Assembly: GCA_964646765.1 (NCBI GenBank)
Contig: CAZYIA010000002.1
Coordinates: 12,760 to 76,759, forward strand
DNA length: 64,000 bases
Origin: an uncultured Candidatus Saccharibacteria bacterium
Lineage (GTDB): Bacteria; Patescibacteriota; Minisyncoccia; Phycocordibacterales; UBA9973
Direction: 5' to 3'
The notes below the pieces were generated by a model that saw only the letters and a list, made by a program, of their open reading frames with translations, was not told the origin of the DNA and did no database searches. Below are positions 54,508-54,682 of this stretch, one piece after another. The position numbers were made by a program, and so were the translations under genes. The stretch's first letter is position 1. Every line of letters begins with the position of its first letter.

Positions 54508-54682
54508 TAACTCTAGAAGGACTCGAACCTCCAAGGACTGTTGTCCATCGGCTGTTACTTCATCTACTGCTCTATAATCAAAAACAACTTTTCTATTTAT
54601 ATCCTGGCTTGAAAAGCAATTAGAGACCAAAACAGTAATGAATCCCAGGGGCCGATGCGTCTACCAATTCCGCCATAGAGCC
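54508..54682 (-). tRNA. Putative class II (long variable arm, Leu/Ser/Tyr-type) tRNA interrupted by an ~88-nt insertion in the anticodon region. The anticodon could not be assigned
   Basis: The 5' half GGCTCTATGGCGGAATTGGTAGACGCATCGGC has a Leu-like D-arm. The 3' half GCCGA-TGGACAACAGTCC-TTGGAGGTTCGAGTCCTTCTAGAGTTA has a variable-arm hairpin and a T-arm. The acceptor GGCTCTA pairs with TAGAGTT, with G-U pairs at positions 1-72 and 2-71. The anticodon stem TCGGC/GCCGA halves are separated by an insertion that contains an internal CCTGG/CCAGG helix. Confidence 0.5.

Follow-up and report, generated by a model that had tools for sequence, protein, structure and literature searches.

Bacterial tRNA introns are generally regarded as exclusively of the self-splicing group I type, and the splicing of tRNA introns by proteins as a feature of archaea and eukaryotes alone. 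Among tRNA-like RNAs, tRNA-Other of B. cereus does not decode, and engineered ‘tRNA scaffolds’ carry a hairpin in place of the anticodon loop. The bacterial tRNA introns known from the literature that we searched are group I introns, mostly >200 nucleotides (nt) in length (PMC8450103). The report nearest to the gene described here concerns the ‘enigmatic’ tRNA introns of Lak megaphages, which are not group I, are highly conserved where they occur, are seen only with eukaryote/intron settings and have an unknown mechanism (PMC6784885). Class II bacterial tRNAs with identity-mismatched anticodons, the allo-tRNAs, also exist, some of them for AGA/AGG (PMC5389517). Here we analyze a 64-kb stretch of contig CAZYIA010000002.1 (hereafter the window) from a member of the candidate phyla radiation (CPR), in which a Leu-type class II tRNA gene is interrupted by a conserved insert between the two halves of its anticodon stem. 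Within the literature searched (tRNA introns and disrupted tRNAs in CPR, Patescibacteria and Parcubacteria), we found no account of such inserts in CPR tRNA genes.

Like the tRNA-like domain of transfer-messenger RNA (tmRNA), YrlA/Y-RNA-like RNAs, tRNA-Other and tRNA scaffolds, the gene combines the acceptor, T and D regions of a tRNA with a replaced anticodon arm, and its product may not decode. It differs in its complete D-arm of Leu type, in its long variable arm and in lacking a tag reading frame. With allo-tRNAs (PMC5389517) it shares the long variable arm, an Arg-codon triplet (CCU/AGG) on a body expected to accept another amino acid and a patchy, accessory occurrence. It differs from them in its 7/5 acceptor/T arrangement (8/4 or 9/3 in allo-tRNAs), in being Leu-type (Ser identity in allo-tRNAs) and interrupted, and in missing U33 in three of its four known copies. 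The Lak megaphage introns (PMC6784885) differ from the insert in their Prevotella phage host and unrelated sequence, and neither covariation nor loop-anticodon pairing has been reported for them. Judged from its sequence, the CPR gene is real, functional, conserved and structurally unusual. Our tentative reading, to which we assign a probability of about 0.42, is that the product would be a tRNA-Leu-derived RNA rather than an ordinary decoder, with a hairpin domain that is retained or regulatory and an insert that is no conventional intron.

A Leu-type tRNA gene with a divided anticodon stem

An earlier note on this DNA, made from the sequence alone, had described a class II Leu-type tRNA-shaped gene interrupted in the anticodon region, and our analyses bear this out. 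The gene scores 32.9 bits against the Rfam tRNA model RF00005 (gathering threshold 29; relaxed filters), aligning to model positions 1-71 with a 97-nt skip in the anticodon loop, and its cloverleaf includes the acceptor, D and T arms, a variable arm of class II size and the conserved elbow nucleotides (Table 1). The Leu D-arm, variable-arm hairpin, T-arm and complementary acceptor halves listed in the note are all present. So are the divided stem halves TCGGC/GCCGA, but the ~88 nt given for their separation needs correction, as they lie 98 nt apart, 91 nt beyond a 7-nt loop. U8 and G9 stand between the acceptor 5’ strand and the D-arm, the acceptor of the window copy contains G1.U72 and G2.U71 wobbles, the discriminator is A73 (at 54508) and CCA is not encoded.

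With default ARAGORN, or with Rfam at gathering thresholds and standard filters, the window yields just four ordinary tRNAs, and the interrupted gene is overlooked. This gene is called by ARAGORN in intron mode (-i), as the note had suggested trying, and scores 193 bits with a covariance model built from its close copies (model R1); its orthologues are in L001, L146 and L156. These L-numbers denote loci from related assemblies, of which 159 were used for comparison.

The three further copies were found through synteny of the genes for the CCA-adding enzyme and a TrmB-family regulator, and all share the insert; the note had proposed such a comparison of orthologous loci. The synteny of the CCA-adding enzyme reached only the closest relatives (L001-L003), and that of TrmB gave L146 and L156; all three copies are in Paceibacteria-type assemblies. 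The L001 copy (same in L002 and L003) has 85% identity to the window gene over 160 aligned nt and the L146 copy 81% over 169 aligned nt. L156 is a distant copy (1904-2083, minus strand), with a TrmB protein 66% identical and an anticodon stem of CAUGG/CUGUG in place of UCGGC/GCCGA. With copies in independent JGI, Logan and NCBI assemblies, the gene is not an assembly artefact.

All four copies occupy one syntenic slot adjoining a TrmB orthologue. The slot is without the interrupted gene in the relatives L004/L005/L007, L157 and L158, and is empty in L157 and L158/L159; the L155 stretch is too short to show it. The interrupted gene is accessory and patchily distributed. A search of 31 sources with model R1 returned no further insert-bearing genes, and ~30 ordinary CPR tRNA-Leu genes were aligned as a reference set. 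A profile of the exons only (D-arm, 112-142 nt gap, T-arm), run over genome contigs, gave ordinary tandem tRNAs and no interrupted gene among the matches listed. Metagenome contigs, in a collection that does not include the L001 sample, were scanned with the anticodon stem plus variable arm, and 18 of 18 matches were chance hits in GC-rich coding DNA. Two scans of viral contigs with blocks of the insert gave 0 matches, and BLAST against phage records found ordinary tRNA matches only.

The acceptor stems of the four copies are GGCUCUA/UAGAGUU (window), GACCGAG/CUUGGUU, GGUCCUG/CAGGACU and GCGCCGG/CCGGUGU. Both-sided changes have occurred at 6 of the 7 pairs, with 100% still paired, and the variable-arm stem covaries among the copies as well. 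The tRNA body is under selection after the insertion. A decaying pseudogene is strongly disfavoured because the stem covariation arose after the shared insertion, and the pseudogene or chance arm similarity that the note had named as its own refutation is contradicted by this covariance support. G1.U72 and A73 are invariant in the four copies; A73 is also found in ordinary CPR tRNA-Leu genes, but the end pair is not, as all of those aligned (~30) have G1-C72. The L156 acceptor carries G3.U70 besides G1.U72, and the other three copies are without it. G3.U70 is the classical alanine identity pair.

Conservation and fold of the insert

Insert length ranges from 93 to 97 nt across the copies (98-104 nt between the stem halves). 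Among the three close copies the insert is 80-84% identical, compared to 77-80% for the exons, and the DNA outside the gene is unalignable. The L156 insert is only 54-58% identical to the others, yet it retains the architecture and 11 of the 12 positions of the apical motif. The insert is under selection.

RNAalifold predicts a single long irregular hairpin stacked on the anticodon stem. In the basal helix, the close copies differ by G-C/G.U changes and one both-sided change. Nearly all of the hairpin sequence differs in L156, which has UGUUUCUU/AAGAAACA as its distal helix where the window has GCUUUUC/GAAAAGU. Both-sided changes occur in 14 of the 32 pairs of the hairpin rod on a four-row alignment that was fitted to the model; over the acceptor, variable arm and hairpin together there are 23 such pairs, with 93% of cells paired in the four copies. 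Each hairpin copy contains 5-9 G.U pairs, and the tRNA-sense strand always folds more stably than the antisense strand (-20.7/-10.9, -29.5/-14.4, -18.0/-13.5 and -17.4/-15.2 kcal/mol for the four copies). These G.U pairs and the better folding on the sense strand suggest a structure formed by the RNA.

A nested pseudoknot with local hairpins P3/P4, like that of the hepatitis delta virus (HDV) ribozyme, was also considered. The three close copies suited this pseudoknot and the long hairpin about equally, but L156 backs the distal helix of the long hairpin and not P3/P4, and the pseudoknot was rejected. The HDV core is a nested double pseudoknot with a P1 of 6-7 bp, P1.1 and a catalytic C in J4/2. 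The likeness to HDV was in strand order only, with a P1 of 5 bp, an ‘L3’ of 14 nt and no CNRA.

The most conserved block of the insert is the apical motif, YCAAG-SCAGG-AUA. All four copies agree at 11 of its 12 positions; the remaining one covaries with its partner at the 5’ base of the insert, L156 having CCUGC/GCAGG for CCUGG/CCAGG, a compensatory change. The insert thus pairs with the anticodon region (CCUGS/SCAGG). The chance of finding such a complement in shuffled apical loops is about P = 0.004-0.03 per copy, which upholds the CCTGG/CCAGG helix of the earlier note (54645-54649 with 54603-54607), and no second occurrence of the motif is present in the window or among the 159 loci. The pairing of CCUGG and a straight 30-bp rod are incompatible because only 2 nt separate CCUGG from the hairpin base. 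Either the rod would bend back, or loop-to-base pairing and rod would be alternative states.

Under the reading that we prefer, a structured hairpin domain of 93-97 nt would replace the anticodon loop of a tRNA-Leu-shaped RNA and stack on the anticodon stem. Its apical loop would fold back onto CCUGS, which was once the 5’ half of an anticodon loop, and sequester it. We infer that the gene is expressed and that its RNA matures as tRNAs do, through RNase P, RNase Z and the CCA-adding enzyme. Bacterial leucyl-tRNA synthetase (LeuRS) reads A73 and the D-arm/elbow and not the anticodon, as established for E. coli tRNA-Leu identity, and LeuRS may aminoacylate this RNA. The tRNA body would then serve as a scaffold, with the hairpin loop and its anticodon-side pairing as the functional or regulatory part.

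Conservation of the insert also bears on a different history, in which a palindromic selfish element or the remnant of an integrated element broke a dispensable, redundant tRNA and the slot beside TrmB would be a graveyard in which tRNA genes decay. As a long imperfect inverted repeat, the insert would suit such an origin, but its G.U-rich sense-strand pairing is unexpected for a DNA palindrome, it is conserved as the exons are while the flanks are saturated, and covariation in the acceptor, variable arm and hairpin continued once the shared insertion had taken place. Patchy distribution would fit a broken gene. So would the anticodon-defective genes in the same slot of relatives (L149, with a loop of 6 nt; L152, with a truncated arm) and the acceptor mismatch of the tRNA-Ile gene in L001, and an att-type duplication of tRNA-Pro beside a recombinase in L004 points to tRNA-targeting integration in the group. 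The insert itself has no target-site duplication and no other copies in the window, the 159 loci or ~125 kb of related DNA. We consider a disabled tRNA gene quite improbable. A miniature inverted-repeat transposable element (MITE) or similar palindromic element, such as the RPE-like elements of Rickettsia, was rejected on the same grounds of one copy per locus, no target-site duplication and strand-specific, G.U-rich pairing.

The missing anticodon and the known routes of excision

Positions were numbered by homology to normal CPR tRNA-Leu genes via N26/N44. In L156 the order is C32 U33 C34 C35 U36 G37, the insert, then G38, and ARAGORN reports ‘Arg(cct) i(40,97)’. Except for U33, which is missing in three of the four copies, this string recurs in the window clade (C-CCUG-G), where CCUG is shifted against the stem by 1 nt compared with L156. 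Homologous excision in the window clade would leave a 6-nt loop; a 7-nt loop with C33 arises only if the stem slides and nucleotide 26 is lost. ARAGORN offers an alternative for the three window-clade copies, with a slid stem, the loop CUAACAG and ‘Val AAC’. When all prefix and suffix joins were enumerated, no single excision gave U33 plus a Leu anticodon, and a 7-nt loop with U33, purine 37 and an isotype-matching anticodon was found neither in the gene nor after one excision. The earlier note was therefore correct, for the window copy, that a 37/38 splice yields no 7-nt loop with U33. Its view that the position is atypical is only partly borne out: in L156 the insert lies exactly at the canonical 37/38 after C-U-CCU-G, and the window clade appears to have this arrangement without U33.

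The triplets readable from the 5’ half-loop are CCU and CUG. In alignments of the CCA-adding enzyme and TrmB of the carriers, AGG occurs at invariant Arg columns (106/106, 107/107 and 99/111; sample of 9 AGG sites) and CAG at invariant Gln columns (106/106 and 110/116; sample of 20 CAG sites). Recoding of AGG or CAG to Leu is unsupported in this small sample, and a Leu-charged CCU or CUG decoder would mistranslate because AGG is Arg and CAG is Gln here. By analogy with the allo-tRNAs, a decoder with a mismatched anticodon would be exotic yet not unprecedented.

Of the described intron types, group I is the obvious candidate in a bacterial tRNA-Leu gene, which is its classic home, and introns of groups I and II are numerous in the rRNA genes of CPR (PMC10714607). 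As in the group I introns of tRNA-Leu(UAA), tRNA-fMet, tRNA-Ile2 and tRNA-Arg, the host is bacterial, the insert sits in the anticodon loop and it pairs internally with the 5’ exon end. Unlike them, it is 93-97 nt long rather than ~200+, lacks the core, folds as a single irregular hairpin without P3-P9-like helices, does not follow U34, and pairs with the 5’ exon through a distal hairpin loop with no U.G at the junction. There is no match to RF00028 (Intron_gpI) at E<=10, nor to any Rfam ribozyme or intron family at that threshold in the gene, and the earlier note had rightly judged the insertion too short for group I. No U34/A35 context is present for the insert, and a join by sequence of the type U/...G/ gives a 9-nt loop, CCCUUAACA.

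Introns with a bulge-helix-bulge (BHB) are the other known type, and some archaeal genes have been acquired by CPR genomes. Like archaeal and eukaryal BHB introns, the insert is short and structured and pairs with the anticodon region, and in L156 it lies at 37/38; a D-loop interruption, as in the gene next to the L001 copy, also has its likeness in the BHB introns of Thermoproteales. It differs from them in its bacterial host, in the lack of a canonical loop in the window clade and in the junctions. The note had proposed a search for BHB motifs there; a systematic search of the four Leu precursors and the L001 Ile precursor found no BHB or relaxed BHB at the junctions, only matches at shuffle-level counts, none of them homologous across copies or bracketing the insert. 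No RtcB, RNA ligase or EndA is encoded among the open reading frames (ORFs) of the window. A degenerate group I intron or an archaeal-type BHB intron gained by transfer that escaped these searches is nearly refuted, and we regard it as a very remote prospect.

Other RNA classes were rejected as well. For tmRNA, ARAGORN reports none and no reading frame is conserved across the four apical regions. For YrlA, Rfam gives 25 bits against a gathering threshold of 69, in L001 only, and the gene ends at its acceptor stem, whereas YrlA ends in a long stem. By eye, no tag ORF, C/D-box or hammerhead motif in the insert is conserved across the copies.

If the insert is removed after all, it would be a new kind of intron, a hairpin of ~93-97 nt excised by neither the group I nor the BHB route. 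Excision could proceed through a small self-cleaving and ligating fold, or through a nuclease and an RNA ligase, and the SCAGG loop would serve as a guide for CCUG at the end of the 5’ exon. Maturation would then yield a class II tRNA that carries G37 and the anticodon CCU (or CUG). The pairing of the loop with the anticodon-side strand, in which CCUG is invariant and the adjacent pair covaries, speaks for such a guide, but few nucleotides are conserved outside the loop motif, which is thin for a ribozyme core, and the 3’ junction differs between clades (GUAACA vs (A)GUUUG). Excision of 97 nt at 37/38 from L156 would give the canonical loop CUCCUGG, but in the window clade the 6-nt loop or the C33 loop with a slid stem would result. 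A working tRNA is the simplest reason for selection on the tRNA body, and a tRNA with the anticodon CCU can typically be dispensed with, in keeping with the patchy distribution. A Leu-type body would nevertheless mistranslate at AGG and CAG, although identity-mismatched class II tRNAs, including those for AGA/AGG, have been reported as allo-tRNAs (PMC5389517). A second interrupted tRNA, for Ile-GAU with a D-loop insert and an intact anticodon arm, adjoins the L001 copy. Against excision stand the negative BHB and Rfam searches, the window without RtcB, RNA ligase or EndA, and a literature in which bacterial tRNA introns are of group I only (PMC8450103). We treat a new intron as a serious competitor, possible but unlikely. 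The earlier note had called the insertion an intron; the interruption stands, but the insert is at most a putative intron, and no splicing machinery is encoded in the window.

A broader form of this idea is that CPR may have a third way to interrupt and restore tRNAs, by means of short structured inserts (in the anticodon loop here, in the D-loop of the L001 tRNA-Ile) whose excision depends on a guide loop and is RNA-catalysed or performed by an unknown nuclease and ligase. Such excision would gate a Leu-type tRNA with the Arg-codon anticodon CCU, a switchable mistranslating or special-purpose tRNA. We consider this speculative and distinctly unlikely.

Several observations weigh against a retained hairpin on a non-decoding tRNA body. 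Removal of 97 nt from L156 at the canonical 37/38 gives a textbook loop, C-U-CCU-G-G, with anticodon CCU. CCUG is invariant and covariation is limited to the fifth pair, a pattern to be expected of CCU plus G37 as an anticodon constrained by decoding, and pairing between intervening sequence and anticodon is typical of true pre-tRNA introns. A 30-bp rod can pair its loop with its own base only by sharp bending, and hairpin stability exceeds that of shuffled sequences only in L001 (z -3.5), the other copies ranging from about +0.5 to -1.3. The L001 tRNA-Ile with its D-loop insert hints at a lineage able to remove or tolerate inserts. No partner protein or target of the apical loop has been identified, and the four copies known amount effectively to two clades.

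Genomic setting and other aberrant tRNA genes

The host DNA is a CPR/Patescibacteria chromosome and not a phage. Neighbouring genes in the window encode a CCA-adding enzyme, UPF0102, TrmB-family regulators, FtsK-like proteins, PNPase, KsgA and GlmS, and many further ORFs have no Pfam match. Among named organisms, Candidatus Pacebacteria, Nomurabacteria and Paceibacterota have the best homologues of the CCA-adding enzyme. Features of the interrupted gene and its immediate flanks are given in Table 1.

Table 1. Position of the interrupted tRNA-like gene, its parts and its flanking features in the window
Feature	Position	Strand	Basis or remark
Whole interrupted Leu-type tRNA-like gene, 175 nt	54508..54682	-	RF00005 match, ARAGORN -i, model R1; read from sequence (54682 to 54508), coordinates verified
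Acceptor stem, 5’ strand, GGCUCUA (DNA GGCTCTA)	54676..54682	-	pairs with 54509-54515
Leu-type D-arm, GCGGAAUUGGUAGACGC (DNA GCGGAATTGGTAGACGC)	54657..54673	-	matches D-arm of ~30 ordinary CPR tRNA-Leu genes (R1 alignment)
Anticodon stem, 5’ half, UCGGC (DNA TCGGC); A26 at 54656	54651..54655	-	pairs with 54548-54552
Sequence between anticodon-stem halves, 98 nt: leftover loop nucleotides plus ~91-93-nt insert	54553..54650	-	alignment of copies
CCUGG, 5’ base of insert (anticodon side)	54645..54649	-	complementary to 54603-54607
Basal helix, 5’ strand, UUCAUUACUG	54633..54642	-	pairs with 54559-54569
Middle and distal hairpin, 5’ strand	54611..54632	-	RNAalifold long hairpin
Conserved motif CAAGCCAGGAUA (YCAAG-SCAGG-AUA)	54600-54611	-	most conserved block of insert
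Apical loop, AAGCCAGGAUAUAAAUA	54594..54610	-	contains CCAGG 54603-54607
Middle and distal hairpin, 3’ strand	54570..54593	-	RNAalifold, covariation
Basal helix, 3’ strand, CAGUAGAUGAA	54559..54569	-	pairs with 54633-54642
3’ junction GUAACA (includes UAA)	54553..54558	-	invariant in three close copies; (A)GUUUG in L156
Anticodon stem, 3’ half, GCCGA; U44 at 54547	54548..54552	-	pairs with 54651-54655
Long variable arm, GGAC-AACA-GUCC	54535..54546	-	stem covaries (AGAC/GUCU in L146)
T-arm, GGAGG-UUCGAGU-CCUUC	54516..54532	-	Rfam alignment
Acceptor stem, 3’ strand, UAGAGUU (DNA TAGAGTT)	54509..54515	-	pairs with 54676-54682
Hairpin and U-run (CUUCCC...GGGGAG UUUUUUU) directly 3’ of tRNA	54462..54493	-	read from sequence
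GNAT acetyltransferase ORF, stops 11 nt upstream of tRNA, same strand	54694..55338	-	Pfam PF00583; context not conserved
TrmB-family regulator, conserved divergent neighbour of tRNA slot	55459..56223	+	Pfam PF01978

The hairpin and U-run that follow the gene probably represent a terminator shared with the convergent UPF0102 gene. The same element trails the gene in L001 and L146; the terminator scanner left it unflagged, its hairpin loop being >8 nt. Upstream, the GNAT ORF of the window is replaced by an unrelated ORF of 117/124 amino acids in L001 and L146 (14-18% identity) and by a 95-amino-acid ORF in L156, and there is no promoter-like site between the start of the GNAT ORF and the tRNA. 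In L001, L146 and L156 the interrupted gene is likewise next to an orthologue of the TrmB gene; in L149 and L152 the orthologue adjoins other aberrant tRNA-like genes.

Three TrmB-family paralogues lie within 13 kb (47582-48355, minus; 55459-56223, plus; 59649-60398, minus), interspersed with five tRNA or tRNA-like genes and the gene for the CCA-adding enzyme (51897-53426), which is 1.1 kb from the interrupted tRNA gene. Each of the four ordinary tRNA genes (53385-53456, 53562-53634, 56320-56391 and 57871-57942) has N73 followed by ‘CA’, so that the full CCA is unencoded, consistent with reliance on the CCA-adding enzyme encoded among them.

Relatives contain further unusual tRNA-like genes. 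Directly downstream of the Leu-type gene in L001 (also L002 and L003) is a tRNA-Ile(GAU) gene (4853-5013, plus strand) with a structured D-loop insert of ~80 nt closed by ACUCAUA/UAUGAGU, a perfect anticodon arm (CUCAA-CUGAUAA-UUGAG) and a C5.U68 acceptor mismatch. Its precursor fold has z = -3.7, and the gene is absent from the window and L146. Homology between the Leu and Ile inserts, suspected from a motif ATATAA..AGGAAAGT, was rejected, as the local alignment is insignificant (158 of 1000 shuffles reach its score).

The same TrmB slot holds a class I Arg(CCG)-like tRNA in L149 (2353-2422, minus strand; identical in L150 and L151), with a 6-nt loop UUCCGA, G1.U72 and A73; Rfam gives it 43.9 bits and ARAGORN ‘tRNA-???(cc)’. 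Upstream of the TrmB orthologue in L152 (2815-2882, minus strand; identical in L153 and L154) is a tRNA-like gene with normal acceptor, D and T arms (Rfam 47.7 bits; nothing from ARAGORN), a shortened anticodon arm CGG-UACCAA-CCG, reminiscent of a cut-down Trp-CCA arm, and an A3.C70 mismatch. In L004 (1500-1720, minus strand), a tRNA-Pro(UGG) gene is flanked by partial duplicates of its own 5’ and 3’ parts and lies beside a serine recombinase (Resolvase and Zn_ribbon_recom); the duplication looks like the attachment site of an element integrated in the tRNA gene.

Farther from the tRNA locus, the window includes a type IV secretion/conjugation-like cluster (279-6193, minus strand) with a type IV secretion system (T4SS) pilin domain (1908-3314) and a TraG/VirB4-type P-loop ATPase (4358-6193), beyond which are very large ORFs without a Pfam match (8190-11525 and 11571-14414). 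For two minus-strand proteins (19975-21345 and 23277-26876), one of them 1199 amino acids long, Pfam gives only the FtsK-gamma (DNA-binding) domain; both lie within a stretch of strongly negative AT skew (about 20-28 kb). Also encoded are a protein with a NYN (PIN-like RNase) domain (39404-39913, minus) and a XerC/D-type tyrosine recombinase (40726-41643, plus), and no evidence ties either to the tRNA locus.

Default ARAGORN and gathering-filtered Rfam silently drop genes of this kind, and CPR tRNA complements may consequently be mis-counted. A short, conserved and covarying insert in a bacterial tRNA gene fits neither the group I nor the protein-spliced class. Removal of the insert would mean that the largest uncultured radiation of bacteria has a hitherto unknown pathway of RNA processing; with the insert retained, the gene would represent a new class of tRNA-scaffolded non-coding RNA, possibly aminoacylated, that acts outside normal decoding.

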